From the IMG/VR virus record IMGVR_UViG_3300033148_002355: a stretch of 64,000 bases of DNA; one strand, given 5' to 3'. A program made the position numbers and the translations under genes. Positions within the stretch are counted from its first letter, which is position 1, and the number at the start of each line of letters is the position of its first letter. The notes beneath the pieces were generated by a model. It was not told the DNA's origin. It saw only the letters and a program-made list of their open reading frames with translations, and searched no databases. Shown one piece after another: positions 7-62,922 of this stretch. The stretch comes from an uncultured virus (IMG/VR IMGVR_UViG_3300033148_002355). Lineage: Duplodnaviria; Heunggongvirae; Uroviricota; Caudoviricetes.

Positions 7-231
7 TTAGCGAGCATTAAACTCATCTAACCAAACATCTTTTGCTACTGTCCAAGCTGTTGCCCAATCAATATAGGTTTTGGTAATATTCCCTTTATCA
101 TCCTCATAGTCGTGCCATCTACGCCAAACTATTGATAAGTGCATTTTTACAGCTAAAAAATAACGCTCGCTAACATAAGCTATATGTAATGCCTTTTTAG
201 CGAGTTTTGATTGTTTCAGTTTTTTAATCAT
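7..231 (-). CDS. Small hypothetical protein (74 aa, MIKKLKQSK...), translated through an attC-like site arm
   Basis: ORF track 7..276; ATG at 231 follows an A-rich leader. The stop TAA coincides with the GTTA core at 6-9. Confidence 0.7.
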   Translation of the reverse strand: MIKKLKQSKLAKKALHIAYVSERYFLAVKMHLSIVWRRWHDYEDDKGNITKTYIDWATAWTVAKDVWLDEFNAR

Positions 232-299
232 TGTATTTTCTTTTAAGTTAGTGTAGTAATTTATCAAGGTCGGCACTACACATAGCCAAACCGTTAGAG
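168..299. repeat. attC-like palindromic site 1
   Basis: CGCTAAC-ATAA-GCTATATGTAATGCC ... GGCACTACACATAGC-CAAACC-GTTAGAG; 15-bp arms with 2 mismatches that are G:T pairs on the bottom strand. Confidence 0.8.
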
Positions 300-313
300 T
301 GCATTAAAACGCA

Positions 314-530
314 CAATAACAATGTATAAGTAAACATAAAATTTACTTATCTTTTCGGTTTATATGGTAAGTATAACTAAATCCAATAGCTGTTCCTAAC
401 CATATCCAAGTCATTACATCTCTGTGATATTCTACATCAAAGCAAAATATCAAATAGTTAATTATTGCTAATATTAAATATATCCATTTCATAGTCGTAA
501 ATTTTTCGTTTCTTATACTAAGCGTTATAA
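314..530. repeat. attC-like palindromic site 2 (loop contains a whole gene)
   Basis: CAATAAC-AAT-GTATAAGTAAACATAAAATTTAC ... GTAAATTTTTCGTTTCTTATAC-TAAGC-GTTATAA. Confidence 0.8.
343..492 (-). CDS. Small two-TM membrane protein (49 aa, MKWIYLILAII...)
   Basis: ATG at 492 within track ORF 343..552; two hydrophobic segments; lies between the arms of site 2. Confidence 0.65.
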   Translation of the reverse strand: MKWIYLILAIINYLIFCFDVEYHRDVMTWIWLGTAIGFSYTYHINRKDK

Positions 531-535
531 ACAAA

Positions 536-742
536 TTACTTCCATAAGTCACTTGTCGCTATCTCATTAACTAAAGTTATTCTTTGTTTCAAAGCTATTA
601 ACCTATGTTTTAACTCTCCTACAACGTGAGAATGATAAGGTCTGTACTTTTTATTCTGTTCGTCTTTTTGGTACTTTTTAACTCTTTGAATGTTCTCTTG
701 TACCATTTTTAATTCTTGCTCTAATAATTCTAATTGTTTCAT
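536..742 (-). CDS. Hypothetical coiled-coil protein (cassette gene)
   Basis: 68-aa ORF bounded by GTTATAAAC (524-532) and GTTTATAAC (753-761). Confidence 0.7.
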   Translation of the reverse strand: MKQLELLEQELKMVQENIQRVKKYQKDEQNKKYRPYHSHVVGELKHRLIALKQRITLVNEIATSDLWK

Positions 743-752
743 ATTTCCATCA

Positions 753-781
753 GTTTATAACACAGTATAAAAACAACTGCG
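753..781. repeat. attC-like left half-site (right arm not recognisable)
   Basis: GTTTATAAC-ACA-GTATAAAAACAACTGCG matches the left-arm pattern and is complementary to the cassette start at 524. Confidence 0.55.
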
Positions 782-800
782 TAGATTTTTATTCTTATCA

Positions 801-1148
801 TTACCTGCAATCTAACTCCCAACTTTCTTTAGAGCATCGTTTTATTAAAATGCTATCATATAAAGAGTTATTACTAACGCTGTACAACATATCTCCTGCC
901 ACAGTGAAGTCTACACTCAAGTCTAATTTATCGCTGTAGTAAACGCTGCCTGAGAGCCTATAACAACTGTTTCCTATCCTTACATACTCCGGATATAAAC
1001 TTATCGCTCTTTGCTTGTTTAAAAACATACAAACCTTTTTAGCTAATACATAGTCATCTATCCACGCTACTTGTTTATCGTTTTCATCAACTATGCTCTT
1101 TCCGAACTTTCGTTTTATCTTGTAACTTCCTTGTTTTATTTTTTCCAT
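801..1148 (-). CDS. Hypothetical protein
   Basis: 115-aa ORF co-oriented with neighbours. Confidence 0.65.
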   Translation of the reverse strand: MEKIKQGSYKIKRKFGKSIVDENDKQVAWIDDYVLAKKVCMFLNKQRAISLYPEYVRIGNSCYRLSGSVYYSDKLDLSVDFTVAGDMLYSVSNNSLYDSILIKRCSKESWELDCR

Positions 1149-1229
1149 ACTGCTAACCTAATAACTATTTAGTAGTTGTTAAAATTATTAACATCCTTTA
1201 ACAACATATCGAAGTGTTTAGGTTTAGAG

Positions 1230-1532
1230 AAAGCGGTCCCCTTATATCCTTGATGGTGTCAAGGACTTGGTTTGAGGTTAGTAAACTGTTATACTTCCCC
1301 CGAACTTAGCTTTCTCCAGTATTTGTGTTCCTCACTTATTTCTAAGTAGCCTTGACATTACAGCATTTACACTCATTATTATAGATCAGATGATTAACAT
1401 CAAGTCGAATGTTGCTGGGTAAGCATTGCATCCTCTAACCCTCACTATAACACGCCTGTTACAACTAGTTACGATTCTTTTATTATCCCTTTTGTTAATG
1501 ATGTATGGAAACATGAACACCTGAACCGCCTT
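1230..1532 (-). ncRNA. Candidate ~300-nt structured non-coding RNA or replication-origin transcript
   Basis: No ORF in the track. On the - strand, AAGGCGGTTC (1532-1523) can pair with GGACCGCTTT (1239-1230) and GAGGGTTAG with CTAACCTC; hairpin TCCTTGA/TCAAGGA at 1247-1265. Confidence 0.4.
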
Positions 1533-1554
1533 ATATGTATTAAGATTCAAACAT

Positions 1555-1592
1555 AAAAAAAGCCCTTATATACACGGTATAAGGACTTTTTT
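1555..1592 (-). terminator. Intrinsic terminator-like hairpin, probably part of an attenuator
   Basis: AAAAAAAGCCCTTATA-TACACGG-TATAAGGACTTTTTT. Confidence 0.65.
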
Positions 1593-1658
1593 GTATCAAG
1601 GCTCAAAGAACCTTTCTTTTATGTCTTTAATTCATACCGTGTATACGAATCTTAATAT

Positions 1659-1706
1659 CAAAGATAAAAATAAATATTAAACTCCCAACTATTTTAATTA
1701 AATTTG
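1659..1706. promoter_or_regulatory. Divergent Bacteroidota-type sigma70 promoters
   Basis: - strand TATCTTTG (1666-1659) with TTG about 20 nt upstream; + strand TAAATTTG (1699-1706). Both match the TAnnTTTG -7 consensus. Confidence 0.55.
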
Positions 1707-1757
1707 ATATAGTTAACTAAACATTATATTTTAAAATATTTTAAAACAACAAAGATT

Positions 1758-44937: not shown

Positions 44938-44946
44938 ATCTGTTGA

Positions 44947-46777: not shown

Positions 46778-46802
46778 TTTTCGTTATCTTTTAATTGTTT
46801 GA

Positions 46803-47510: not shown

Positions 47511-47512
47511 AA

Positions 47513-48469: not shown

Positions 48470-48744
48470 TTACCTTCTCTTATTATTTTAATACCAGCAT
48501 CTTCTATCTTTTTCATCCTAGCATCGAACTCCTCTTTATCTTTAAGATTTTCAGAATAAACTATCTCTTTAGTTTTAGTGTTGTAAATACAGATAGCTGA
48601 GTCATTAGGGTCCCAATTGTCAGCTCCGCAAACAAGGTCTGAAACTCGTAGGTGTTCAACAATAGTAATAGAGTCGCAGTCTGGTATAAGGTGCTCGTTC
48701 CCTTCAACAGGCATATCTATACCGTTAATTTGCATTAAATTCAT
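48466..48744 (-). CDS. Hypothetical protein
   Basis: 92 aa; coupled to neighbours. Confidence 0.6.
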   Translation of the reverse strand: MNLMQINGIDMPVEGNEHLIPDCDSITIVEHLRVSDLVCGADNWDPNDSAICIYNTKTKEIVYSENLKDKEEFDARMKKIEDAGIKIIREGK

Positions 48745-49148
48745 ATCCCTATCATTTTAAGTACTTGTTTCAATTCGCTTTTGTTTTTGATAGTGCCGTT
48801 AAACAAACAAGCTAATTGCCCTATCTGATTTGACTTGAACACTCTCAATATATTCTCTGAGGTGTGTAGCATAGTGTACTCTTCTTTTATATAAAAAGTA
48901 AACAATTCTTCTCCATCGTCAGACTGTCCAAAACATCCTTCAGGTTTTAATCCCCACCCCAAACTCTCAATATCCTCACGGTCTAGGTGTTTGACTCTGA
49001 CAGTATCTTCTAAAGAAAGAATAGATTGGTCTTTAGAGAAAGTTTCTTTTAACCATTCTCCATCTAAACCTTCAATCCCCCAAAGAGCTTCATACTCAAA
49101 CCCAACGTGGAACTCCGAATTTTCGGGCGTATAATATTTACTTTCCAT
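48741..49148 (-). CDS. Hypothetical protein (MESKYYTP...EFHVGFEYE)
   Basis: ATG at 49148 within the track ORF. Confidence 0.7.
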   Translation of the reverse strand: MESKYYTPENSEFHVGFEYEALWGIEGLDGEWLKETFSKDQSILSLEDTVRVKHLDREDIESLGWGLKPEGCFGQSDDGEELFTFYIKEEYTMLHTSENILRVFKSNQIGQLACLFNGTIKNKSELKQVLKMIGI

Positions 49149-49150
49149 AA

Positions 49151-49333
49151 TCAATCTACTTTTACAATTTTACCTGTTACTTTACCGTTTTCATATATCT
49201 TAAATATCGCGGGAGTATCATCAGGAATATGTTCAAACTTTTTATCAAACACTTCTTCAGCGTCTTCTTTTTTCATAAAGACGTACCTGGGATAACTACC
49301 CTTACCCATTGCTTTAATTAAACTATCAAACAT
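49151..49333 (-). CDS. Hypothetical protein
   Basis: 60 aa; coupled to the clamp gene. Confidence 0.55.
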   Translation of the reverse strand: MFDSLIKAMGKGSYPRYVFMKKEDAEEVFDKKFEHIPDDTPAIFKIYENGKVTGKIVKVD

Positions 49334-50505: not shown

Positions 50506-51536
50506 TTCTTTTTCTTTTTTAGTTTTATGTTTTTAAATATGTGTGCTATTACATCTATGGTCCATCCGTTACCTAGCATTTTATATAGTTGTGAGTCAGA
50601 AACTCCGCAGGACAACATAATGTCTATTATGTGCTCTGGTATAGTTTGAAGGCGGGCGCACTCTAAAGGGGTTAATCTCCTTACCCCTTTATCGTTTTTA
50701 ATATAAGGGTCAGTTTTACCGCACTTAGCGTACCTAGCTGTAAGGCAGTAACTTTTTTTCGAGTCTTTATCGTGAGGTTTAAACCGGCCTTTAAAAGCCG
50801 GACTACCGTGAGTAAGCCCGTTTATAAGTTTTTCAGATAAATAGTATTTTTCATCTATTATAACTAAATTATCCTTACCTACAGTAGTTAAACAATTACT
50901 CTTACTATCTTTTCTAACCTCTATACGTTGCTCGGTTTTGCCTGCCATACTATCTACGGTATGGTCTGCTCTTTTACCATCTACAATATAGCGCCCTCTT
51001 TGCGCCCCTATCTTCTCACTCCCGTCCTCCAAAATATCCTTTAACAAAACACCCTTATCTTCCGGTTGTCCTATTCCTGGTATATTAGTCCAGTATAACC
51101 TAACCCTGTTTTGAGCAGAGACTAACGAGCTGTTTATCATTATAGGCTCTACACCCATGTATTTAGATATAATATCTTGACTCTCCTTTTTCATCCTTAC
51201 GTTTTCAAGTAAGAAGTATTTAGGTTGTAATTCCTCTTTAAGTCTAACGAACTCAAAGAATAACTTACTACGTGGATCTTCAAAGTTTAACTGTTTACCT
51301 GCAAATGAGAACCCTTGACAAGGACTGCCTCCTATTAGTAAATCTATATCAGGTAAACCAAAGAAGGTTACGTTCCTAACGTCTCCCAATCTTTTAATGT
51401 TTGGATAAATAGCTTTAGACACTTGCATAGCGTACTTATCTATTTCACTAGCGTAGTAATTATCTACTTTTATCCCCGCCTTTTCTAAAGCCATCATGCC
51501 GCAACTCTTTCCGTCGAATAGTGAAACTACATTCAT
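50502..51536 (-). CDS. DNA (cytosine-5) methyltransferase
   Basis: SLFDG, EID, GGSPCQGFS, LLENV, QNRVRLYW and KMLGNGW motifs; ATG at 51536. Confidence 0.92.
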   Translation of the reverse strand: MNVVSLFDGKSCGMMALEKAGIKVDNYYASEIDKYAMQVSKAIYPNIKRLGDVRNVTFFGLPDIDLLIGGSPCQGFSFAGKQLNFEDPRSKLFFEFVRLKEELQPKYFLLENVRMKKESQDIISKYMGVEPIMINSSLVSAQNRVRLYWTNIPGIGQPEDKGVLLKDILEDGSEKIGAQRGRYIVDGKRADHTVDSMAGKTEQRIEVRKDSKSNCLTTVGKDNLVIIDEKYYLSEKLINGLTHGSPAFKGRFKPHDKDSKKSYCLTARYAKCGKTDPYIKNDKGVRRLTPLECARLQTIPEHIIDIMLSCGVSDSQLYKMLGNGWTIDVIAHIFKNIKLKKKKK

Positions 51537-51537
51537 A

Positions 51538-52308
51538 TCAATATTTAATTTCAGTTTTAATAATTTCAATAGTGTCTTTAGGAAAATCATCTGCTTTACT
51601 AATTACCCATAAAGCATAATCCCTATCATCATACACAGGTTTACCTCTATTTTTACCAAAGTTGTAACATATATTTTCTTTGTCATCTTTGATTAGTTTA
51701 CCTGTACTATCGAAATGGTTGTTCTTATCTCTTAGTTCATCAAAGTAAAAATCTATAATACCTTCAACAGTGTCAGGAATATCTTCTTGCTTAATCATTT
51801 CATCAAGGAGTATCTTAGTTGCTTTAGCGTCGTTGTAAGCATCGTGACTGCCTACTAACTCTTTCCCGGTGTATCTTTGATACATAGCTCCTAACTTCCT
51901 ACTATATATCTTATTAACTAATTTCATCACATCTAAGGTCATTGTTTCTGGTTCCTTATGGAAGTGGCAGTTAGCTTCGTACATCTCTCGTCTAAGCAAA
52001 GGTAAATCGAACCTATCAATGTTGTACCCGCAAACTATGTGAGTACTGATAGCTGCTTTGATAGTAGATGCTACCATATTGAACTTAGGTTCATCTTTAA
52101 CCATTTCATCTGTGATACCGTGTATTTCTGTAGCTTCGGGAGGAATAGGCATACCGGGGTTTACTAACCATGTCCTCTTATCTATTTTCCCGTTAGGCCG
52201 TACACGTATAGCAGCGACTTGAACTATCTTATCAGTTGATATGTTAACTCCAGTAGTTTCTAAGTCGAGCCAAACTAACGTGTTGTTTTCTTGGTTGAAT
52301 TTGTTCAT
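51538..52308 (-). CDS. DEDDh 3'-5' exonuclease (Pol III epsilon-like)
   Basis: DLETTG, GYNIDRFD, HDAYND and C-terminal NFGKNRG. Confidence 0.9.
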   Translation of the reverse strand: MNKFNQENNTLVWLDLETTGVNISTDKIVQVAAIRVRPNGKIDKRTWLVNPGMPIPPEATEIHGITDEMVKDEPKFNMVASTIKAAISTHIVCGYNIDRFDLPLLRREMYEANCHFHKEPETMTLDVMKLVNKIYSRKLGAMYQRYTGKELVGSHDAYNDAKATKILLDEMIKQEDIPDTVEGIIDFYFDELRDKNNHFDSTGKLIKDDKENICYNFGKNRGKPVYDDRDYALWVISKADDFPKDTIEIIKTEIKY

Positions 52309-52309
52309 A

Positions 52310-52765
52310 TTACTTAATTAGCATTACTGTTCCTTTTTTATCTATTTTGATGTTGTGACTTTTAAAGTGTTTATTGAATAACGCTTTAGATTGAGTGTTA
52401 AGCTTTTTCTTAGCTGCATCAAAGTCTTTATACTTCTCAGGGTTTTTAAGATACTCATCATTCCCTTCCGCTGGATAAACTACATCTTTGATAAGTTTAT
52501 CCCTAAGCACTTTTAATTTAGCATCGTATGCATCTTTTACTGATTTAGGAATAACTCCATACCTGTACGCTAATTTAATATCTGGAGTAATATACTCTTT
52601 GTGTAACCGTTTGACTTGTGCGTAAGTTTCATTATCAACTGTTCCTTTTTTAAGGAAGTCACTGTATAGTTTTTCAACTATAAGAGGAGCGTCTTGAGCT
52701 TCTAAGTCAACTGATATTTCTCCCTTTTTCTTTTCCGCTTTTAACGGTTTCTTTTTCTTTGCCAT
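52310..52765 (-). CDS. Hypothetical basic protein
   Basis: 151-aa ORF. Confidence 0.7.
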   Translation of the reverse strand: MAKKKKPLKAEKKKGEISVDLEAQDAPLIVEKLYSDFLKKGTVDNETYAQVKRLHKEYITPDIKLAYRYGVIPKSVKDAYDAKLKVLRDKLIKDVVYPAEGNDEYLKNPEKYKDFDAAKKKLNTQSKALFNKHFKSHNIKIDKKGTVMLIK

Positions 52766-52791
52766 TGTTTATTTATTTATTTAGTTATTAG

Positions 52792-53238
52792 TTAAAATCT
52801 TAAATCTTCATTTCCTCCTCCCATAGTCCTATAAATCAAATTATCTATATGTTCACTATGAGTTGACTTCTTATTTGTACCTGTATCAATTAACGTTTGA
52901 TTCCCTTGAGTTACTAAAGGTATCCTATGTCCTCCTTCTCCGTATATCGTTCCATCTATTATATCTTCACATACCAACTTAGTTATCTTTTCAAATACAT
53001 CGTTCAATCCGTTCATTTTAGATGTTACTAAAACATATATTATAATCTCACTTAACAACTCTGAAGCTTTGACTATATTTCTGTCTTGGTTAAAGTATAT
53101 ATAATTTTCAATAAGGTCCTCCATCTTCTCTCGAAACTCTTGTAATTTAACATCATTTAAGATAACTGGTTTTCTAGGTATTTCATGATTACCTAATATC
53201 TCTGCTATTGTCCTGATTTTTTTATCTAATGACTTCAT
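52792..53238 (-). CDS. Hypothetical protein (possible degenerate MazG-like fold)
   Basis: 148 aa, helical; weak resemblance only. Confidence 0.55.
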   Translation of the reverse strand: MKSLDKKIRTIAEILGNHEIPRKPVILNDVKLQEFREKMEDLIENYIYFNQDRNIVKASELLSEIIIYVLVTSKMNGLNDVFEKITKLVCEDIIDGTIYGEGGHRIPLVTQGNQTLIDTGTNKKSTHSEHIDNLIYRTMGGGNEDLRF

Positions 53239-55049
53239 ACTTTTTGAAATCTACTGGTTATACTTTCTTTGATATTGTTCTTCTTCTCGTAATCTTGTAT
53301 AAGCGACTTGAATAGTTTCTTCTCCAGGTTCCCATATTCTACTATCCCTGCTTTCTTGTGATCTATAGCTGAGTTAATATCATCTGTTTTACTTTCAATA
53401 AGGTTATATATCCTCTGGTCAATACTATCTGGTATCATTGTATACATTACCTCTACATCTTTAGTTTGCCCCATTCTGTGAGCCCTTTTATATGGTTGCT
53501 CTAATAAATCGGGGGTGAATCCCATATCCATAAACACTACCTTACGAGCATTAACTAAGTTAATACCAATACCTGCAGCTATAACTTGACCTAAGAACAC
53601 TTGTACCTCTGTACGTTGCTTAAACTTATCAATACGGTTCCTTCTTTTAAGACTACTAACACTTCCATCAATAAGAACAGCTGTATTACCTAACTCATCT
53701 TTTAATTGATTAAGTACAGTTTTAAAGAAACTGAACACTATAACCTTTTCTCCTTCCCTGTTAAGCTTTCTGATTAACTTGAGGACATCAGGTATTTTAG
53801 ATTCACTACAAAGCCTGTTAAGAGTCATTATGTTACCTCTACTCTTCATTGAAGCTTTCCTTTTAGTACTCCTCAAGTAAACTAATCTCTCTGTGTTTCT
53901 AGTACCTGTCCCTATTTTGTTTTTAATCCTATGTTCTACTTCTTTAATTTCAGCAGTTACCTCTGCAAGTAGCTTCTGAGCGTCATACATCTCTTTTATA
54001 GCCTCTTGGTACTTCTTTGTACTCTTATCATTCATTTCGAAGTAGTAGCTCTTAATAACGAGCTTAGGTAAGTCTAACTCTTCTTCTGATTTCTTTCTAA
54101 GCATCCAGTTGGATAACTTTAATCTAAAGTCTTCTACATTCTTAATACCTGTAACTTTTTGACCGTTCCCTTTAGCGTACCTTCTTTTGAAGTCTGTAAA
54201 GTTTTTACCCATTGGGTGTTTGCTTAAGTGTAGTAAAGCGAATATATCAGTTATTCTGTTCTTGATAGGTGTGCCTGTTAAGAAGGTAACTCTTGCTTTA
54301 GGATACTTGTTCAAAAGCTTCCTAACTTGCTTGAACTTATCTGTACCCTTATTTTTTATATAATGAGCTTCATCTATGATAATGTGATCGATTGGGGACT
54401 TGGTTATATGCTTGATGTACTTCTCTACACTTTCATAGTTAACTATTACAAATGACTCTTTCATTACACTGAACATGCATTTATTCCTGTCAAGCAAAGT
54501 AAAGAATAAAGGGTTAAATCCCCACTCTTCTGTAAGGTCTGTATACCAGTTCCATTTAGTTAATGAAGGGCAAATGATTACTGTACGTTTTAAGTTGAAT
54601 AGTTTAGTAAGTGAAGCAGCGAATAGTGTTTTACCTAATCCTTGTTCAAATGCACATAAGTTGAATTGTCTATTTCTGAAGGACCATAAAGCAGCAGCTT
54701 GATACTTCATTAGTTTCTTTGGATCACCTTCCTTGTCAAATAGTCCTTCGTATAAAGTCGCGGGAGAATACTTAGCTACAAATTCTTTAGCATCTTTTAA
54801 GTATATCCTTTTAATAAGATCAACAAATACTTTCTTCTTATCTACATTGAACTTATTGTCCATTAAGTTACGATCAACGTACTTAACGTATTTAAGTAAT
54901 GCTTCTTTACACGTTATACGAATATCTACAACTACCTTTCCTTTGTCTTTGACAGTCATATCAAGACATTCAGCCGTTAACAGCTCCTCGTCTGAGAAGT
55001 GTTTTTGGAACAAGAGCCTCTTGTCGTCTTTACTTAACGTTATCTTCAT
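53235..55049 (-). CDS. SNF2-family helicase/annealase
   Basis: FEQGLGKT, IIDEAH, LTGTPIKN, GIGINL and KRAHRMGQ. Confidence 0.9.
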   Translation of the reverse strand: MKITLSKDDKRLLFQKHFSDEELLTAECLDMTVKDKGKVVVDIRITCKEALLKYVKYVDRNLMDNKFNVDKKKVFVDLIKRIYLKDAKEFVAKYSPATLYEGLFDKEGDPKKLMKYQAAALWSFRNRQFNLCAFEQGLGKTLFAASLTKLFNLKRTVIICPSLTKWNWYTDLTEEWGFNPLFFTLLDRNKCMFSVMKESFVIVNYESVEKYIKHITKSPIDHIIIDEAHYIKNKGTDKFKQVRKLLNKYPKARVTFLTGTPIKNRITDIFALLHLSKHPMGKNFTDFKRRYAKGNGQKVTGIKNVEDFRLKLSNWMLRKKSEEELDLPKLVIKSYYFEMNDKSTKKYQEAIKEMYDAQKLLAEVTAEIKEVEHRIKNKIGTGTRNTERLVYLRSTKRKASMKSRGNIMTLNRLCSESKIPDVLKLIRKLNREGEKVIVFSFFKTVLNQLKDELGNTAVLIDGSVSSLKRRNRIDKFKQRTEVQVFLGQVIAAGIGINLVNARKVVFMDMGFTPDLLEQPYKRAHRMGQTKDVEVMYTMIPDSIDQRIYNLIESKTDDINSAIDHKKAGIVEYGNLEKKLFKSLIQDYEKKNNIKESITSRFQKV

Positions 55050-55071
55050 TTCTGTTTTCTGTTGTCTTAAT

Positions 55072-55129
55072 GGTTAACTAATTTTAAAAACAATTTCGTT
55101 CCTCAACAATTTTTACTATTGCGTTATAA
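55072..55129. repeat. attC-like site (short, degenerate)
   Basis: GGTTAAC...TAAAAA...TTTTTAC-TATTGC-GTTATAA; right end matches ATTGCGTTA at the window start. Confidence 0.5.
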
Positions 55130-55384
55130 AACATCTGTTTGTTTACTCCTTTCAAAACCGTCACAACCTAAGCATTGTGATTCACACCTAACCCCTCCAA
55201 CTTCTTCATTAGAGCAAACAAACGATTTCATAACATCAGGTATATTTAAATTTTTCAACTCTGTCCATGCGTGAGCATAAGCTTGTGATTTTCCATCACT
55301 TCTGCCTTTTTGGTATTCACTACTATCATCCCTTGGTGTATTAGCACCTTTTTTAAATACTTCTAAAATTTCGTTAATATTCAT
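55124..55384 (-). CDS. Hypothetical protein translated through an attC-like arm
   Basis: 86 aa; KNLNIPDVMKS is encoded by the site arm; the stop lies in the GTTA core. Confidence 0.7.
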   Translation of the reverse strand: MNINEILEVFKKGANTPRDDSSEYQKGRSDGKSQAYAHAWTELKNLNIPDVMKSFVCSNEEVGGVRCESQCLGCDGFERSKQTDVL

Positions 55385-55433
55385 CTGTGTAAATTTATTC
55401 GTTAAAAATCAAAACATACCTGCAACATTACCT
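55228..55433. repeat. attC-like site with mutated core (ATT instead of GTT)
   Basis: TCATAAC-AT-CAGGTATATTTAAATTTTTCAAC ... GTTAAAAATCAAAACATACCTG-CAAC-ATTACCT. Confidence 0.75.
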
Positions 55434-55455
55434 ACAAGTGCTAAGTCGGTAGGTA

Positions 55456-56034
55456 CTAATAATGTTTCTTCTTAAATTCTTCTGCCATTATATCCTGCAT
55501 ATTACCTTTGTAATATCGTGCTGTTTCAGGGTTACTAATTTCATATATCCCTGAACCCATGTTTGGTATGATTAATCCACAAGTAAGAAAATCAAAACAT
55601 AAAGCTATGTTTTCTTCTCGTATTAAAAACTCTTCTTTAGTTAACCTAAGCATTTCATCTACGTTATCGCACATTTGAATATACTCATCATATTTTTCGG
55701 TTATGGCTTCCAATTTCTCAGAGGTAATACATTCTTTAATGTCAGGATATTTTTTGATAGCTTCTATTGTTTTGACCCAATAACTACCTATGCGCTCTCT
55801 ATCTCTATTTAGTCTATCCATTTCATAAGCCATAAAATGCTTATCGTCCTCCATTTGTTGTTTAAATCTTAGTGCAGGTGTGTCAGTTTCAAACGAAACA
55901 AACTCATTATTCACTATCCAATTTTTATCATCAATCTTTGTGATGTTATTTTTATATTCGCTTTTACTACTTAATGTTTTTGAGAAGCTCCATCCCATTA
56001 AGCCAAATAATCCTATCATCAATATTATTTCCAT
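55456..56034 (-). CDS. Membrane-anchored hypothetical protein (cassette gene)
   Basis: 192 aa with N-terminal TM; bounded by ATTACCTAC (55427) and GTAGGTAAC (56069-56077). Confidence 0.7.
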   Translation of the reverse strand: MEIILMIGLFGLMGWSFSKTLSSKSEYKNNITKIDDKNWIVNNEFVSFETDTPALRFKQQMEDDKHFMAYEMDRLNRDRERIGSYWVKTIEAIKKYPDIKECITSEKLEAITEKYDEYIQMCDNVDEMLRLTKEEFLIREENIALCFDFLTCGLIIPNMGSGIYEISNPETARYYKGNMQDIMAEEFKKKHY

Positions 56035-56070
56035 TTTCTTAATTTAATCAGTTTATAAATCCGCACCAGT

Positions 56071-56135
56071 AGGTAACACTATCTATATGCAAAACTCCGT
56101 TGCACTACGTTCAGCACATAGCCAAACCGTTAACT
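56071..56135. repeat. attC-like site (short, 65 bp)
   Basis: AGGTAAC-ACTAT-CTATATGCAAAAC ... GTTCAGCACATAG-CCAAACC-GTTAACT; shares CACATAGCCAAACCGTTA with site 1. Confidence 0.8.
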
Positions 56136-56358
56136 ACTTCTCTATAATCTCAATCAAAGTAAGTGTGTCAGGATCGCATAACATGGCTAATGGCTGACCT
56201 TTAATATGCACTTGCATTTTACCGTTAACCATATCTTTATTGTGATGTGTTATTCCTACTTTACCAGTGTAGGTTTTTACTTTGAATCCGGTACTACCAA
56301 CTCTAAAGTTGTGATCTAAGTACCAAGCGTTTGGATTTGTCTCTTCTGTTATTTTCAT
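56134..56358 (-). CDS. Hypothetical protein
   Basis: 74-aa ORF ending at the site core. Confidence 0.65.
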   Translation of the reverse strand: MKITEETNPNAWYLDHNFRVGSTGFKVKTYTGKVGITHHNKDMVNGKMQVHIKGQPLAMLCDPDTLTLIEIIEK

Positions 56359-56371
56359 AATATTTGTGAAT

Positions 56372-57814
56372 CTAATTATTTATAAACGCTTCTGCAAACC
56401 GAACCTCAGCATCCCCGTTCGCATTCCAATCTACCATCTCTATAAATAACTGATACCCTTTCTTTTCTATGAACTTTAATACTTTACTAAAAGTTTCTTT
56501 ATCGAATAAACTACCATCTTTAATGAATATACATTTAAGGTTAGGATTCATAGCAATTGCTAGTTGTACTCCTACTCTGATAATAACACTGCTAGGATGA
56601 TGGTCCCCGTTAAAAGGTAATCCTTCAAAGTAAACTCCTTCTTCATCAAATGATAATCCTTTAACTGGTAAGGTACTCGTTTCAAAAGACTTTTGCTTTT
56701 CTAATACGATAGCTTTTAAACGTTTGGTTAACTTGTTAGCTTTAGCTTCTTGTTTAGTCACCTCAGCGTGTTTAGTAACTACATCTTGGATTTTAGTATA
56801 CATCGCTGTGTATTGTACTAGTTCAGTTTGTTTATCTCTTAGCTTATCTACGTCAGGTTCTTCATTCTTTTCAATCCAAGCTTTTACTTTAACTATCTGT
56901 TCTGCTGAAGCTTTACCTCTGACCTGAATAAGGTCATGATCATGCATCCTGTTTTTAAGGTCCAGAAGAAACCTCTCATTGTCTTCTCCTAAGGCTTTAG
57001 CTTTATCTAAAACGATTCTATAATACTTAGTTAACTCCCTTGATTTGTCGCCTTCTAAAATACCTGTTTGATGTTCAGTTAATGCTGTTCTTGCCTTGTT
57101 ATACTTGACAACACCGTCAACCATATTCAAAAGCTTATTATTAACCTCTGTGAGCTCTTTACTCTTGTCTTCAGTATACTTCTTTACATCCTCTTCTTTA
57201 ATGTCTGTAGCACTGCTTAAATTAGCTTTTAAGGTTTTGATGGTTCTGTTAAGTTCAGTTCTTTCATCACGTTTTTCCTTATTCTCATTATCCAAATCTT
57301 CAAGTAATTGTTTTTCATCATCTGTTAAAAATTGTCTTAATACTTCTACTTGTTCTTTTAAACCTGCTTGACTTACTTTACCACTACTTGTTAAACCTAA
57401 CCTTATAAACTCATCAACATCGAAACTAACGTCTCCTATGATGTCACGTTGCATTGATTTAGTTTTAATCTTGTTACCTTCTTCATCTACTACTGTAACA
57501 CTCCCTTTTTGATTGCTTTCAGTAAAGTTCATTATGTATTGGAAAGTCTTTTGTTCTCCATCTAAGTCACCTTTGATAACTAGTTTAACGTGTGCTGACT
57601 CTTCTCCTTTTTTGATTGCTTTAGAAGGGACTGCTTCGCTATTTATCGGGGATTGTATAGCTCTAAGAACAGTAGATTTACTACCCCCGTTCTTTCCTAC
57701 TACAACTATACTCTTTCCTTGTATATCAATTACCTTACTAGATAATGATTGAAAGTTCTTTAACTCTGCTGAAATGATTTTCATTCCTGTCTCTTTTCTG
57801 TTTAACTCGCTCAT
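56372..57814 (-). CDS. SMC/RecF-like AAA ATPase with coiled coil
   Basis: ELKNFQSL, Walker A variant GKNGGSKST, central coiled coil, IFIKDGSLFD and QLFIE. Confidence 0.8.
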   Translation of the reverse strand: MSELNRKETGMKIISAELKNFQSLSSKVIDIQGKSIVVVGKNGGSKSTVLRAIQSPINSEAVPSKAIKKGEESAHVKLVIKGDLDGEQKTFQYIMNFTESNQKGSVTVVDEEGNKIKTKSMQRDIIGDVSFDVDEFIRLGLTSSGKVSQAGLKEQVEVLRQFLTDDEKQLLEDLDNENKEKRDERTELNRTIKTLKANLSSATDIKEEDVKKYTEDKSKELTEVNNKLLNMVDGVVKYNKARTALTEHQTGILEGDKSRELTKYYRIVLDKAKALGEDNERFLLDLKNRMHDHDLIQVRGKASAEQIVKVKAWIEKNEEPDVDKLRDKQTELVQYTAMYTKIQDVVTKHAEVTKQEAKANKLTKRLKAIVLEKQKSFETSTLPVKGLSFDEEGVYFEGLPFNGDHHPSSVIIRVGVQLAIAMNPNLKCIFIKDGSLFDKETFSKVLKFIEKKGYQLFIEMVDWNANGDAEVRFAEAFINN

Positions 57815-57829
57815 TTGTCTGTTTGCTTT

Positions 57830-58024
57830 TTAGTTTTTGTTTTTTATATATACTACTGCTTTACCTTTTATTGCTAAATCGTATATCATTTTCCTTTGAT
57901 AGTCACGTAGGTTTAAAGGATGCCTGAATCCGTCTTCACTGAGTACGCAGGTGTATTTCTGTACAAAGTAAAGAAGATCATTTTGACACTTATCTAACTC
58001 TTCGTTTAGTTCTTGTTCTGTCAT
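57830..58024 (-). CDS. Small protein resembling a terminase N-terminal fragment
   Basis: ELDKCQNDLLYFVQKY...PLNLRDYQRKMI resembles the N-terminus of T4-like TerL. Confidence 0.5.
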   Translation of the reverse strand: MTEQELNEELDKCQNDLLYFVQKYTCVLSEDGFRHPLNLRDYQRKMIYDLAIKGKAVVYIKNKN

Positions 58025-58377
58025 GATTTAGTTTTAAATACTTCATCCCAAGTTTTAGGATACTTTTGATTTAATATTTGTTTCTTCAACTCTTTCTCTG
58101 CTTGTGACATCTTGGCTCCAGTAGCTCCTATTGATCTTGGTTTGTAAACTAAGTTTTTGAAACTTTTAACCCAACCCATATAATCTTCCCACTCTCTTAT
58201 GTTAAGGTTCCAAACCTTCTCAATATACAATCCGGACATCTTACCATCTAATCCAAACTCACCATAACCGCAACGAGTCATCCCTATCTCTTTCATTTCA
58301 ATAAGGCGCTTTCTGGTTCTGTCGTTATTTAGAGTAGAGCTGTAATAGGTTTTGTCTTCTATATTTATTTCACTCAT
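58021..58377 (-). CDS. Hypothetical protein
   Basis: 118 aa; coupled. Confidence 0.65.
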   Translation of the reverse strand: MSEINIEDKTYYSSTLNNDRTRKRLIEMKEIGMTRCGYGEFGLDGKMSGLYIEKVWNLNIREWEDYMGWVKSFKNLVYKPRSIGATGAKMSQAEKELKKQILNQKYPKTWDEVFKTKS

Positions 58378-58565
58378 TTATCTTTTATTTTTCCTGTTTT
58401 ACATTTTGTCATATCAAGAGTTACGAATCTAAGATTACCTTGCTTAGCTTCTTCTTTTAAACACTTAATGTAGTTATCTTGAATCTCTTTCGCTGTGGGA
58501 TTGATAGTGTACTCTTTAGTAACTAACTTCTCTCCGTCGTGGTATGCAATAGTCCCTTTGCTCAT
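58374..58565 (-). CDS. Hypothetical protein
   Basis: 63 aa; coupled. Confidence 0.6.
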   Translation of the reverse strand: MSKGTIAYHDGEKLVTKEYTINPTAKEIQDNYIKCLKEEAKQGNLRFVTLDMTKCKTGKIKDK

Positions 58566-58567
58566 AT

Positions 58568-59614
58568 TTACTTCTTTTTACTTTTTTCTACAAACTCTTC
58601 CCTATCCTTTTTTTGTTTACAAAACTTAGCAACACTACAATAAAACTTACACTTAAACCCTACATCTATTCTAAACTCTATTTTAGGGTTAGTTAACTTA
58701 GCTTTGTTATCTTCTATATACTGTTCGGCACTTGCTTTACTGTAACATATTTTAGCAGCATTCTTCCTAGTTTCAGACATGACAGCAAAAGCATCTGGTT
58801 TAGCCCATCTTTCTGTATAAGAACATAATGGTAACTTTTTCCTTTGACTTGCTTCGTAGTGTAACTTAACACGTTGCTTAATATACTCTTCACATTCTTC
58901 CGGGGACCAAACTCTTAACTCTATAATTTTAAACACTGAGTCAGGGTATTTATTAGCTTTCTTATTAGGGTTCATAATGTAGTTCATCTTACCCCAGTTT
59001 CTGAACATAGCAAGTATTTCAATCTTCTCCACTTCACAACCAATAGCTCTTAACATGTGAGCGTATATGTTTTGTTGACGTTCCCAATCTATATGTTCGT
59101 CTTCACCATACTTATTAACATTACATACTTTATAATCTCTTAACAGTTTTTCGGGAGCATTATAATAATCTTGAGTACCACTAACTCGGTAAGTGTATTC
59201 TTTATCATCAACTTCGCTTACCTGGGTAATATCTAATGTTAAAGTTCTTTCAGAAAATATAGTCTTACCTACTTGTTCATCAGGGAATCCTTTCTTAGCT
59301 GCTAAACCTATTTGTTTTGCCAAATCGGGGAGACCCATCCTTTTCAAAGCAGCGTGAGCAAACTTTAACGTTTCATAATCTCTATGAGTATAAGTAGCAC
59401 TTTCCATCAAACTATGAAACGCTGTACCTAACATCATAAACACATGATCGTTAACATCTTCTTCCACTTCGTTAGCATCCTTTAACATACGTACTCTAGG
59501 AGACCCTATTAAAGTAGTTACTGATATATCACCTTTAGTAACGTGATCGTCGAAACAAGCAGCTTTGTATAGTTCTGCAGGTGCTCCGTATTTGTTTGTT
59601 ATTTTAACGCTCAT
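58568..59614 (-). CDS. PD-(D/E)xK Cas4-like exonuclease
   Basis: ISVTTLI, GTAFH, GTQD...RDYK, QQNIY and C-terminal CKFYCSVAKFC; ATG at 59614. Confidence 0.8.
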   Translation of the reverse strand: MSVKITNKYGAPAELYKAACFDDHVTKGDISVTTLIGSPRVRMLKDANEVEEDVNDHVFMMLGTAFHSLMESATYTHRDYETLKFAHAALKRMGLPDLAKQIGLAAKKGFPDEQVGKTIFSERTLTLDITQVSEVDDKEYTYRVSGTQDYYNAPEKLLRDYKVCNVNKYGEDEHIDWERQQNIYAHMLRAIGCEVEKIEILAMFRNWGKMNYIMNPNKKANKYPDSVFKIIELRVWSPEECEEYIKQRVKLHYEASQRKKLPLCSYTERWAKPDAFAVMSETRKNAAKICYSKASAEQYIEDNKAKLTNPKIEFRIDVGFKCKFYCSVAKFCKQKKDREEFVEKSKKK

Positions 59615-59640
59615 AGTGTTGTATTTAATACTTTTAAAAT

Positions 59641-59678
59641 AAAAACCCCTTGTCAACTTTGACATAAAACAAGGGGCT
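59641..59678 (-). terminator. Hairpin/terminator in the leader of the nuclease gene
   Basis: AAAAA-CCCCTTG...CAAGGGG; second hairpin CTCTCA-CTTAGGA-TGAGAG at ~59695-59713. Confidence 0.5.
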
Positions 59679-59759
59679 TCCCTCTTTTTAAGAACTCTCA
59701 CTTAGGATGAGAGGTAAGAACGATCTTTAATATCTTATTGTTAATAATCTAAATGTACT

Positions 59760-60272
59760 TTATACTTTCTTAAACTCCCGTTTTTTAAGATAATTTAACT
59801 TCATTAATTTATAGTCGTCAGCATCTGGAACTTCCACTCCGTATATCATTTCCACATGACTTACTATATCGTTGATAAAATCTATCAACCTCCCCTTTGT
59901 CATATCTCTTTGACTCAGTAATACAAATACATCACTACCGTCATTATCGGGGATTACATCCTTTGCAAACATCATCTTCATAGCTATCATACACTCGACC
60001 TTATCTAATACCTCTCCTTGGTCCCTTTTAACTTTCATGACAAAAGGTATCAGTACACCATTTAAGTAGTTGTACATCCTTCTTTTGCCTTCTATAGATG
60101 TAGTTTCTTCTATTGTAATAGTAAGTTCCTCCCCGCGTTTTTGAAATAGGAATGAAGTTAATGATCTTACATCTGTCAAACGTATGAGCATATCTCTTAA
60201 TGAAGAGTCTCTTTTAAATGTTACGTTGGTTATTATTTTGTCCATTTGTTTAATTCTATCGGGGTGTATCAA
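59760..60272 (-). CDS. NinB/Orf-like recombination protein (tentative)
   Basis: MYNYLNGVLIP...MKMMFA...SQRDMTKGRLIDFINDI...GVEVPD pattern. Confidence 0.5.
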   Translation of the reverse strand: MIHPDRIKQMDKIITNVTFKRDSSLRDMLIRLTDVRSLTSFLFQKRGEELTITIEETTSIEGKRRMYNYLNGVLIPFVMKVKRDQGEVLDKVECMIAMKMMFAKDVIPDNDGSDVFVLLSQRDMTKGRLIDFINDIVSHVEMIYGVEVPDADDYKLMKLNYLKKREFKKV

Positions 60273-60652
60273 AAAGGTATAATCATAAGCCTACCTCCAG
60301 CTCTTTGACACCATAAATCTAAAGCTCCACAACTAATGTTTACTATTCCTCTTTCTGCTTGTGCATAATAACTTCTATTAGTACCTACTAACAAAGCCAT
60401 TTCGGTTTGCGTTAAGTTTAAGTTGCTCCTTAAATACTTAAGCATCTTTCCTCTTGATAATCGTTGAGGTTTGTTTTCATATTCAAGTATAGCTTTCTTA
60501 TTCCTTGGTGTCTTAGGTCTTTTTTCTATTATTCTTTCTCTAGCTTCTTTTTCATCTGTTTCTGAAAAAGCAGCCCTAATATGTAAGTCTCTTTCTTCAG
60601 CTTCTGAAAGCGGTTGGTTTCCTGTTCTTGCTTTTTCTATTTTTCTTGGCAT
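60269..60652 (-). CDS. XRE-family HTH transcriptional regulator
   Basis: LKYLRSNLNLTQTEMALLVGTNRSYYAQAERG. Confidence 0.85.
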   Translation of the reverse strand: MPRKIEKARTGNQPLSEAEERDLHIRAAFSETDEKEARERIIEKRPKTPRNKKAILEYENKPQRLSRGKMLKYLRSNLNLTQTEMALLVGTNRSYYAQAERGIVNISCGALDLWCQRAGGRLMIIPF

Positions 60653-60684
60653 TGTGTTTTTATTTATTTGCGGGGAGAATTAAA

Positions 60685-61167
60685 CTACCCTTGGTTAAAA
60701 TACTTGTTTACATCATTATCTATTACTTCCTTACAACAATTAACTAAACTAACATACTGAGCAAATCGTCCATAATCTTTACCTAACACATGAACAATAC
60801 TAAACAACTCCTTACGATACTTAATAATACCTTTAGCAATTTTCCTGTACTCTCTCTCTTGCACATTACTATCAGTAACCTTTTCTTTCATCTTTACCAT
60901 CTTCTCTAATACACGATATAAGTTGTTAAGCACTTCTTTATCACTTAATAGTTTTACTTCGTCTATTCGCTTGTAAATAGAGCAAATAAATGTACTTAAA
61001 TTTCCTACTAGGTCAGTTAGTACTAAATACTTCACCTCCTGAGTTACTTGTCTTTTATTCCCTTGTATTTTGATGGTAGGATGTGTATTGTCTCTGCCAT
61101 GTATAATCAAGTAAAAGTATAACGTGTGTATGTTGTCTTTGGTTGTTTGGTGTACTGTGGTTATCAC
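60685..61167 (-). CDS. Hypothetical protein
   Basis: 160-aa ORF, GTG start. Confidence 0.6.
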   Translation of the reverse strand: MITTVHQTTKDNIHTLYFYLIIHGRDNTHPTIKIQGNKRQVTQEVKYLVLTDLVGNLSTFICSIYKRIDEVKLLSDKEVLNNLYRVLEKMVKMKEKVTDSNVQEREYRKIAKGIIKYRKELFSIVHVLGKDYGRFAQYVSLVNCCKEVIDNDVNKYFNQG

Positions 61168-61252
61168 TCTTTTTTATTTTTAAGTTGTTTCTTTAGATTT
61201 CTTATCATTAAAAAAAGTACTATTATAATCATTACTGGCGGTATGTATATCA

Positions 61253-61507
61253 TCATTTTTGATCTTTTAAAGTTTGAGCGCACCAATTAAGCGAGTGCAT
61301 TTCCGCTTCGAGTATATCTATTTTATTCTTTAACCCTACATCATGCATTACATTTCTACTTGACTCTCTCTCTTTCGTAACTGCTTTCCATGTCTTCTCA
61401 GCCTCTTTAAACTGTTTTGTATACTTCTTTATCACTTGAACTTTTAAACAAGCTAACGACTCTTTAATGTCTTCGGGTGTTATTGTTTTGTAAGTGTTTT
61501 TGGTCAT
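61253..61507 (-). CDS. Hypothetical protein
   Basis: 84-aa ORF. Confidence 0.65.
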   Translation of the reverse strand: MTKNTYKTITPEDIKESLACLKVQVIKKYTKQFKEAEKTWKAVTKERESSRNVMHDVGLKNKIDILEAEMHSLNWCAQTLKDQK

Positions 61508-61643
61508 AGTTTATATTTATTTGTGAATAGAGCAATAGCCTTTTTTTTAAGGTTTACTCTGGTTTATAATTTACTTGATATAATAATCAAAGCTATTATA
61601 CTAACAAAGATTATCCATGCTATAATAAAATCATTCTCTTTGT

Positions 61644-61838
61644 TCATACTTTTTCAATTGTTAATCCTTCGTGCTTATCTCTTAACTCTTTTACCTCTGT
61701 ACTATTATACCTTCTCGCTAGTGCGGGTCTATCTGTTAACTCTGGTGTGTTGTTAACTATGTACCATACAAATAGCCTCCCTTTTTTTAGTATATGGGAT
61801 TTCGCGTATGTTTGTCTAGGGAATTTTGATCCTTTCAT
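61644..61838 (-). CDS. Hypothetical protein
   Basis: 64-aa ORF. Confidence 0.6.
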   Translation of the reverse strand: MKGSKFPRQTYAKSHILKKGRLFVWYIVNNTPELTDRPALARRYNSTEVKELRDKHEGLTIEKV

Positions 61839-61866
61839 AATTTGCGGGGTTTTAGTTTTTAGTGGT

Positions 61867-62070
61867 TTATATTATGTTAATTTTTACTGAATAATAGCTG
61901 CCGTTATTTAAAAAATCTTTCCAATCGCTTTCAGTGTTATACTCACACTCTTCAAATTCGTCTTTACTCATTTCTGAAGTCCTAAATTTTGAAAAAATCT
62001 TACCACCTACATATTTTCTAATTGTAAATGTTCTTTTTGATTTATTTGCTGTTGCTCTTAAAGTTTTCAT
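61867..62070 (-). CDS. Hypothetical protein
   Basis: 67-aa ORF. Confidence 0.65.
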   Translation of the reverse strand: MKTLRATANKSKRTFTIRKYVGGKIFSKFRTSEMSKDEFEECEYNTESDWKDFLNNGSYYSVKINII

Positions 62071-62115
62071 TTGATTTTGTTTTAGTGGTTTTTATTTTTG
62101 CGGGGTTTATTTTTA

Positions 62116-62283
62116 TTAAATATATAATTCTTTACCTTTCAAGTCTTCAACTGTGTCTCCTTGGCTAGATCCTAAGTACGTATAGTGTTGTTCGTCTGTA
62201 CAACATTCGCAGTTAATAGGTATCCAAATTTGTAAACCTTGTTTAAAAAACTGTTGTGCTTGTGTTAATGTTATTTTTGTCAT
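62116..62283 (-). CDS. Small hypothetical protein (55 aa, MTKITLTQAQ...; not in track)
   Basis: Hand-translated ORF with an A-rich leader. Confidence 0.6.
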   Translation of the reverse strand: MTKITLTQAQQFFKQGLQIWIPINCECCTDEQHYTYLGSSQGDTVEDLKGKELYI

Positions 62284-62303
62284 TTTTTTTGTTTTTATTA
62301 GAT

Positions 62304-62364
62304 TAATAACGGAGATGTAAAACGCAACTCCTTACAGTCGCAGACGTTTACACGGTCGTTGTGC
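62304..62364. repeat. attC-like site (short)
   Basis: TAATAAC-GGAGA-TGTAAAACG ... CGTTTACA-CGGTC-GTTGTGC. Confidence 0.65.
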
Positions 62365-62586
62365 TTAATTAGGTAATAGACTAAGCATATTGTCCCAAAC
62401 GCATACACTGTCATACATTCCATTACCTGAGTACGATATTGCTCCTACATTTACAATATCAAACTTTTCACCGTTTGGAATCTCTACTGTTTCGGGTGTT
62501 ATGCTTGTTATTAATACTTTTCTATCGCTTACATTACATAAGTAAATGCAACCTTCTTTTAATTGTGATATTTTTAATGTTTCCAT
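62365..62586 (-). CDS. Hypothetical protein (cassette gene)
   Basis: 73 aa; bounded by GTTGTGCTTA (62358-62367) and TAAGCACAAC (62595-62604). Confidence 0.7.
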   Translation of the reverse strand: METLKISQLKEGCIYLCNVSDRKVLITSITPETVEIPNGEKFDIVNVGAISYSGNGMYDSVCVWDNMLSLLPN

Positions 62587-62597
62587 AATTTAACTAA

Positions 62598-62689
62598 GCA
62601 CAACACTACCTATAAAAGCATAGCGTCGGGCTACTTGGTTTAATAATTAAGCGTATTACTGGCTACGCTTTATAGCCTCAACGTTGTAG
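62598..62689. repeat. attC-like site
   Basis: GCACAAC-ACTAC-CTATAAAAGCATAGC ... GCTACGCTTTATAG-CCTCAAC-GTTGTAG. Confidence 0.8.
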
Positions 62690-62693
62690 TGCA

Positions 62694-62834
62694 TTAGATA
62701 AACTCTATGTTATCAATATGAACGTTTTCTATTTTGTTGTTATGCTCAACTTTAATCATAACAAAATCATTTACTATGATGCTACAAACTTCTGCTATGT
62801 CACATCCCCAAATTACTTTACTTCCTACTATCAT
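62694..62834 (-). CDS. Small cassette gene (46 aa, MIVGSKVIWG...; not in track)
   Basis: Hand-translated; bounded by GTTGTAGTGC (62683) and GCACTACAAC (62864-62873). Confidence 0.65.
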   Translation of the reverse strand: MIVGSKVIWGCDIAEVCSIIVNDFVMIKVEHNNKIENVHIDNIEFI

Positions 62835-62866
62835 TTTATTTTGTTTTTTAGTTATTAATTAACGCA

Positions 62867-62922
62867 CTACAACAATTTGTATAGTACATACTTCGTACAG
62901 CCCCATACAAGGGGCGTTATTT
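62867..62922. repeat. attC-like site (short, 56 bp)
   Basis: CTACAAC-AAT-TTGTAT ... ATACAA-GGGGC-GTTATTT. Confidence 0.7.

Follow-up and report, generated by a model that had tools for sequence, protein, structure and literature searches.

The 64,000-nt stretch of uncultured virus DNA analyzed here (IMG/VR IMGVR_UViG_3300033148_002355; hereafter, the window) carries a series of hairpins, each opening with an AAC triplet and, in most cases, closing with a GTT triplet. These hairpin sites are very probably attC-type cassette recombination sites, forming clusters of attC sites lacking integron-integrases (CALINs) in the early/accessory region of a crAss-like phage with a marine Bacteroidota host. 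This reading draws on the geometry of the sites, the covariation of their arms, a strand bias in folding, a cassette logic that ties neighboring sites together, a relationship with the sites of bacterial arrays, and natural variants whose breakpoints fall at the triplets. The sites fall into three clusters (172-812, 55076-56131 and 62308-62918). Since at least two attC sites lie close together and no recombinase family was found among the 78 open reading frames (ORFs) of the window, the clusters count as CALINs.

A first-pass annotation of the window had described eight hairpin sites by the distances from AAC to the left arm and from the right arm to GTT, and re-reading the sequence reproduced every one of these counts. 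The right-hand spacer is longer by 2 nt in six of the eight, the exceptions being 62308-62360 (5/5) and 55076-55125 (6/7). All eight sites exist, but one of those listed as complete, at 55228, ends in ATT rather than GTT. A phage set was assembled from the window and 45 distinct related viral loci (221.6 kb), fetched by a seed 18-mer of two window sites (A and E, below). In this set the spacer combinations (3,5), (4,6) and (5,7) gave 34, 38 and 22 matches, compared with 4.4, 5.0 and 5.2 in shuffles, and the whole +2 diagonal gave 111 against ~22; 44 of the 111 contain the seed 18-mer. This excess over shuffles rules out a chance origin of the geometry. All offsets collapse to one register, AAC-N5-stem...stem-N7-GTT, with zero to three extra pairs reaching into the spacer. 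Spacers of 5 and 7 nt, always with the additional 2 nt on the GTT side of the + strand, set these sites apart from bacterial attC sites, for which five to six nt per arm are described (PMC5027507).

Structure rather than sequence is conserved in these sites, with an asymmetry that favors one strand; geometry, covariation and strand bias all support this proposal of the first-pass annotation. Across 26 aligned short sites, AAC and GTT never vary (26/26), and the arms differ yet covary, with double changes at seven of eight stem pairs. Bases were paired in 98.3% of the paired cells, compared with 76.0% in shuffles and 22-61% in slid registers. The aligned sites were picked partly by pairing, and the shuffle excess of the geometry scan is the cleaner statistic. 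On the folding strand, AAC is followed by a G (column G14, at least 90% conserved in the 26 sites), and a conserved G at this place is described for attC sites (PMC2727003). When any type of mismatch was allowed, 103 of the 228 mismatches found in the phage set were A(left).C(right), and the next type accounted for 19; chance matches included in this set would dilute the A.C excess, not create it. The A.C mismatches concentrate at stem positions 5 and 10 and become G.T pairs on the minus strand, as had been noticed at several window sites. Folded with DNA parameters, the minus strand was the more stable at 10/10 window sites by 0.17-3.3 kcal/mol, a gain that is small at several of them. It was also the stabler in 87 of 118 phage-set matches (mean -1.07) and 86 of 144 bacterial matches. 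Bacterial attC sites share the stabler bottom strand, with a literature mean of 2.12 kcal/mol over 263 sites (PMC5027507).

Neighboring sites are connected across the gene between them: the bases after one site's GTT are the reverse complement of the bases before the next site's AAC. This is the relation seen in bacterial attC arrays, where a cassette's start is complementary to its own inverse core. The post-GTT bases are not complementary to the site's own partner (4 of 76 own-site pairs match). Seven junctions in the window match at 10, 8, 9, 8, 8, 10 and 10 of 10 positions, and 13 of 32 consecutive pairs in phages and 10 of 22 in bacteria match at 5-6 of 6, compared with 4.4% and 1.9% of random pairs. 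At the left end of the window, the right core (R') of a site lying further left, which is also the start of cassette A, reads GTTAGCGAGC (6-15, + strand) and is the exact reverse complement of cassette A's inverse core at 165-174 (10/10, at the predicted place).

Gene polarity in the phages is inverted relative to bacterial integron cassettes. Both neighboring genes were antisense to the site in 36 of 46 phage contexts and sense in 2, whereas both flanking ORFs were sense in 51 of 80 bacterial seed contexts and antisense in 7; these both-neighbors counts replaced a first, noisy measure of flanking-gene strand. The canonical cassette layout, with the gene on the top strand upstream of attC, does not describe the phage contexts. 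Because the phage genes mostly run antisense to the site, the phage site lies at the 5' end of the gene. In a long class of sites the loop holds the ATG; in about 20 loci the left arm encodes ..KALHI(A/G)xV.., and the protein bodies that follow are unrelated.

The exact 18-mer of sites A and E occurs in 47 viral stretches and in 98 bacterial stretches, the latter almost all Bacteroidota; a rough estimate of chance occurrence is about 2 and 17, respectively. The bacterial sites, often in a conserved 183-nt version, come after same-strand ORFs in arrays. Conservation of one repeat version across a species group is also a feature of the VCR repeats found in the sedentary chromosomal integrons of Vibrio. 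The 183-nt site is near base-for-base the same across Prolixibacteraceae, Draconibacterium, Sunxiuqinia, Ancylomarina and others (L060-L128, e.g. L069 5835-6017), and several arrays can occupy one chromosome (L066, L069, L088 and L125). One bacterial array contains a group II intron (L078 7758-8418; RF01999 at 92.3 bits and RF00029 at 47.7 bits).

In 5/5 Bacteroidota genomes, the best integron-integrase-like gene has family sites 0.1-6 kb downstream of it in the same orientation. The gene encodes a 353-390 aa Xer-like tyrosine recombinase with an N-terminal extension of ~85 aa (L154 12513-13574, minus strand; L155-L158), which is accepted by the NF040815 model ('XerA / integron integrase') and can be aligned over its whole length with archaeal XerA (4a8e, 5hxy). 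The L154 protein is also alignable to the integron integrase VchIntIA (2a3v), over residues 13-180 and 248-318. A recombinase co-oriented with its cassettes is what we take to be the 'inverted integrase' layout. These recombinases and arrays may represent integron-like platforms of a kind that standard detection through the integrase would fail to score as complete. The IntegronFinder 2 paper, in its account of Bacteroidetes, gives only In0 elements and one complete integron.

Natural variants change at the sites. A related viral locus, L001, is syntenic with the window (68% identity on a 480-aa protein) and is without 55050-56133, which spans two genes and three sites, and without the block of sites F, G and H. 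The cassette of a 192-aa gene (ORF192) recurs in a second locus, L026, at 74% amino acid identity and 83% nucleotide identity over 660 nt, with unrelated flanks; the homology starts exactly at the (G/A)|TT triplet of site D. We also compared contigs from other sequencing runs (X1, X3 and X5), of which X3 and X5 are marine metagenomes. In X3 and X5, 62361-62914 is replaced by 228 letters, with site F as the left and site H as the right breakpoint, and 55126-56118 is replaced as well. Contigs of the same two runs join an intact H-type site to window position 804, in site Z, as GTTA|CCTGC, with loose ends at 62919. Across most pairs of viral loci the site is the only DNA in common, and homology stops at GTT(A). 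A search of viral contigs with peptide patterns found no relatives of ORF192; the L026 copy was found by blastn among the fetched loci.

The layout of the sites matches published descriptions of attC (PMC2727003, PMC5027507), and we infer from this match an integron pathway in which the sites would be recognized and recombined as a folded strand by an integron-type recombinase. On the + strand, a cassette would begin with the TT after one GTT, contain one small minus-strand gene followed by the cassette's own inverse core with its terminal AAC, and finish at the G of the following GTT. The minus strand, single-stranded during replication or entry, would fold into a hairpin. In this hairpin an unpaired, asymmetric spacer (7 nt on the 5' side and 5 nt on the 3' side) would separate the short AAC/GTT R box from an L stem in which positions 5 and 10 are G.T wobbles, and the top would vary from 20 to 190 nt. 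A tyrosine recombinase of the host, of integron/Xer type, would then cut within the AAC of the minus strand (G|TT on the + strand) and exchange one strand with a partner site, leaving a junction that replication would resolve. The outcome would be excision, insertion or replacement of single-gene cassettes among phages, possibly involving host arrays. The predicted enzyme would have to be supplied by the host, because no tyrosine recombinase was found in the window or in 5/5 array-bearing viral records, three of them rated 100% complete.

Several observations weigh against attC-type recombination. The first-pass annotation had described attC sites as bottom-strand hairpins with an unpaired central spacer and extrahelical bases. 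The bottom strand is the stabler one here, and a spacer is present but at 5 and 7 nt, outside the usual range; consistent extrahelical bases were not found, with uninterrupted stems in 36 of 76 phage and 45 of 94 bacterial sites. Single bulges were divided between the arms 10 to 8 in phages and 8 to 16 in bacteria, in a scan that is biased against, and would miss, sites with an early bulge; sites F and G do carry one bulged A on the R''-L'' arm. Unlike bacterial attC, the family has two fixed G.T wobbles where 2-3 extrahelical bases would stand, and its bulges are inconsistent. The array-adjacent recombinase reaches 211 bits on TIGR02249, under the cut-off of 265. In the L154 protein, 24 residues replace 67 of VchIntIA, removing ~43 residues of the IntI-specific insertion that has been called essential for integron function (PMC8138268). 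The flank match is absent in 19 of the 32 consecutive phage pairs, which likely reflects missed or false sites. Not every breakpoint is at GTT: some are close to the inverse core or the left arm (loose ends at 62312, 62318 and 56119), and homologous exchange within the conserved sites would fit these as well. Finally, in phages the folding strand is also the mRNA strand, leaving room for an added RNA role.

Promoter-stem-loop (PeSL) cassettes of T4-type phages are described as pairing a promoter with a stem-loop and as acting via homologous recombination. The window sites resemble them in being repeated stem-loops on either side of variable early genes of small size, within a part of the phage genome that is plastic, and they could in principle be conserved repeats that shuffle genes by ordinary homologous recombination, no site-specific enzyme acting in the phage. 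Between unrelated contigs, copies of the site share 80-100% identity over 55-180 nt, enough for short-homology exchange; some breakpoints, including the three just named, lie within sites; neither the window nor the array-bearing viral records yielded a recombinase; and nearby deletions occurred at plain direct repeats, from 63393 to 63592 (44 shared letters) and from 61840 to 62097 (12). Yet PeSL cassettes differ from these sites, which have attC geometry, triplet-precise boundaries and relatives in bacterial integron arrays, where the same family stands beside a recombinase. Sharp ends of homology at GTT(A) in most pairs, the retention of geometry and pairing by sites with differing arms, and complementarity of flanks across each gene, which would have no role, all run counter to exchange by homology. 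Nor do the sites look like PeSL promoters: sigma-70-like matches were not enriched (48, compared with 38.9, sd 7.1, expected), and no Bacteroidota-type promoter was clear by eye inside the sites. Homologous exchange leaves triplet-precise ends, covariation and flank logic unexplained, and we consider it unlikely as the sole account.

A role confined to RNA, in which hairpins on minus-strand early transcripts serve as terminators, processing signals or translation controls and the G.U pairs arise from RNA selection, would account for the better-folding strand being the sense strand of the phage genes (36 of 46 contexts) and for a start codon enclosed by the long-class hairpin; a terminator-like match (G+C-rich stem plus T run) on the minus strand, inside site F, is also in line with it. 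The first-pass annotation had raised RNA processing or termination as an alternative, but such a match was present on the minus strand at only 1/10 window sites, and the one at site H is on the + strand, opposite to the genes. No Rfam family matched the sites, the only Rfam matches being a tRNA and the group II intron in the bacterial array. In the bacterial family the sense strand is the opposite one (51/80), yet the wobbles occupy the same positions; in arrays, the lower stem pairs with the neighboring site across the gene and not with its own partner; and the variants break at triplets. The bacterial polarity and the near absence of terminator signatures (1/10) make an exclusively RNA role highly unlikely, although either an RNA role or homologous exchange could operate alongside site-specific recombination. 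Another single-strand hairpin enzyme could be imagined, such as an HUH transposase, whose IS200/IS605 and REP-associated families offer a comparison for hairpin substrates; hairpins with conserved flanking triplets are indeed dispersed in many genomes. However, none of the Pfam matches (E <= 0.001) of the 78 window ORFs suggests an enzyme of this sort, and the recurrent array neighbor is a tyrosine recombinase (5/5, in flanks screened for tyrosine recombinases only). The order of R box, spacer and L box, with G after AAC, is moreover that of attC (PMC2727003, PMC5027507), and we regard substrates of an HUH enzyme as improbable in the extreme.

Compared with known integron elements, the family shares with bacterial attC sites (59-base elements, VCRs) the AAC...GTT cores, the G after AAC, a covarying L stem and a variable top, and it has an unpaired central spacer, though of 5 and 7 nt. 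CALINs in virulent phages have already been published (2023, PMC9892861), and none of the 17 that were found among the phage genomes surveyed there is crAss-like; 5/6 phage attC sites tested there recombined with IntI1. Like the window, the phage CALINs described there consist of two or more attC sites separated by single genes, in lytic-type phages without an integrase, and one belongs to a marine Bacteroidota (Polaribacter) phage (PMC9892861). They differ from the window in that here one conserved site family extends over 47 viral stretches, with genes antisense to the site (36/46) and some starting inside it. The same source reports typical gene direction in phages TJE1 and PH101 and divergent attC directions in Polaribacter phage P12002L; an antisense rule for phage cassettes does not figure in its account of them (PMC9892861). 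A full-text literature search turned up no report of attC sites in a crAss-like phage, nor of phage cassettes whose genes are antisense to the site. We rate integrase-less attC clusters in phages as a known kind of element and the antisense, crAss-like family as a variant of it.

A more specific and tentative proposal, which we hold to be somewhat less probable than its negation, is that Bacteroidota phages, crAss-like and others, keep a mirror-image pool of antisense single-gene cassettes. In such a pool the site at the gene's 5' end could carry the start codon and the first ~20 codons, making the recombining strand the sense strand. Cassettes would be exchanged by host Xer-type recombinases without the IntI insertion, and strand choice would depend on the 5/7 spacer and on the two G.T wobbles, with no part for extrahelical bases. 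Phage and bacterial cassettes would then share sites and enzyme without being expressible in each other's arrays. Integron cassettes are a main gene-capture route in bacteria, and their strand choice and origin are still debated. Here a natural attC family keeps the core layout and drops the extrahelical bases thought to direct strand choice; in bacteria it appears to be served by a recombinase without the hallmark insertion, and in phages it is used in the opposite gene polarity. Cassette turnover is visible in wild populations of one crAss-like phage. Integron-type exchange would thus be a source of plastic early-gene regions in marine phages of high abundance, and genes might pass by this route between phages and host arrays.

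The window sites were cataloged on the + strand, and their cassette genes lie on the minus strand. Both triplets, AAC and GTT, are present in 7/9 window sites, with D and Z ending in ATT. A loose scan of the window alone gave 56 matches against 27.0 in shuffles, so only sites with family features were accepted. The covariance model R1, used for scoring below, is narrow and misses long-loop sites, including known ones in L154, L156 and L026. It gave no match in L001 or L002, which is weak evidence given this narrowness; a geometric scan of L001 gave two matches, both without family motifs.

In the first cluster, site A (165-302; AAC 172-174, spacers 4/6, GTT 293-295) is of the long class with a gene start inside. 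Its 15-bp arms contain two A.C mismatches and agree with the family at 10/10 stem positions, and about a dozen other viral loci carry sites that are 78-90% identical to it. The 74-aa cassette gene (7-231) has its ATG in the site A loop, its codons ..KALHIAYVS.. cross the left arm and inverse core, and its stop codon TAA is the first three bases of cassette A; it matches no Pfam or PHROG family. Directly left of the site A inverse core, within the coding region of this gene, AAAAAATAAC (155-164, + strand) is an exact reverse-complement copy of GTTATTTTTT, the site H right flank (62916-62925); this match may be the relic of a nested insertion, or may mark a large cassette-like unit spanning the part of the genome outside the window. 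Site B (311-533; AAC 318-320, spacers 3/5, arms GTATAAG/CTTATAC, GTT 524-526) is the site previously called at 314. Its 3/5 count and length of ~217 bp stand, and its structure is refined to an outer pairing, 318-526, whose loop holds a whole 49-aa minus-strand ORF (343-492) and an inner hairpin, 318-360 (5/7). The outer pairing was chosen because its right flank matches the next site's inverse core at 9/10; the small hairpin 318-360, rejected as the site itself, agrees less well with the 3/5 count, with the length of 217 bp and with the cassette logic. Only 24 nt separate sites A and B (window 293-320), and they form a small hairpin, GTGC-ATTAAAAC-GCAC, with a loop motif that is also found as the top loop in many minimal sites (44-45 nt) of other loci. 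Site Z (749-812; AAC 759-761) is decayed, with right triplet ATT at 800-802 (R1 E = 0.0045).

The second cluster begins with degenerate site C, the earlier 55072 site (55069-55132; AAC 55076-55078, spacers 6/7, GTT 55123-55125). It is the left edge of the block missing from L001, and the match of the X3 contig ends at 55125. An 86-aa cassette gene (55124-55384), absent from L001, starts in the loop of site D, and its stop overlaps the GTT|A of site C. Site D, the earlier 55228 site (55225-55436), has AAC at 55232-55234, spacers 2/4, arms CAGGTAT/ATACCTG, right triplet ATT at 55427-55429 and family agreement at 9/10 stem positions; a hairpin at 55424-55466 (spacers 2/8) was not counted as a site. 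ORF192 (55456-56034), the cassette common to L026, is likewise absent from L001. Site E (56068-56138), of the 57-nt short class, has AAC at 56075-56077, spacers 5/7, arms CTATATGC/GCACATAG and GTT at 56129-56131, and scores 62.3 bits with R1 (E = 3.8e-11), being itself in the seed alignment. In the third cluster, site F (62301-62367; AAC 62308-62310, spacers 5/5, GTT 62358-62360) has its bulged A in the left arm, and its right flank, GTTGTGCTTA, is the exact complement of the inverse core of site G. A 73-aa cassette gene between F and G (62365-62586) matches no Pfam or PHROG family. Site G (62595-62692; AAC 62602-62604, spacers 5/7, GTT 62683-62685; R1 E = 0.00046) also has a bulged A in the left arm. 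Between G and H lies a 46-aa cassette gene (62694-62834), whose frame was checked. Site H (62864-62925; AAC 62871-62873, spacers 3/5, GTT 62916-62918) gives R1 E = 6e-07 and is in the seed alignment.

We read the window as a crAss-like phage from its gene content. It is AT-rich (32-39% G+C), with a plus-strand block of large structural genes from 1758 to 43943 and minus-strand blocks (1-1550 and 44023-64000) of replication genes and many small ORFs without families. The structural block includes a terminase, a portal protein, a 2770-aa ORF and a weak match to a crAss tail ring protein, and its 1541-aa protein scores 59.6 bits on the crassvirus muzzle family, against a cut-off of 27. No close cultured relative of the window was found: among the 15 matches listed for the helicase, identity to cultured phages does not exceed 29%, and no DNA match of site E or of the 54-64 kb region was found among 50,697 deposited phage records. 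As part of the same joint explanation as the attC-type sites, the host is probably a marine Bacteroidota.

Several further features of the window were noted. L001 has no counterpart of the gene at 50502-51590 for a C-5 cytosine DNA methyltransferase, and a 72%-identical relative lies at the edge of another viral locus (L039) beside an attC array; no site was seen next to the gene in the window. A 61-nt direct repeat, 95% identical (63391-63451 and 63589-63649), covers two gene starts, and the X1 contig is without the 198 nt between the copies. The intergenic motif GCGGGG(T/A)TT (+ strand; AA(A/T)CCCCGC on the gene strand) precedes small early genes in the window (61846-61856, 62100-62110 and 62928-62936) and in L001 (3765-3775 and 4440-4450). 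The X3 contig is without 61841-62096, which lies between two copies of this motif with 12 shared letters. Three segments, 57817-58381, 58431-58574 and 63697-63841, are skipped in the X3 and X5 contigs (the last also in X1), with no site seen at their ends. Within an ORF at 41590-41841, four to five 42-nt tandem repeats, 83-94% identical, occupy 41602-41811.

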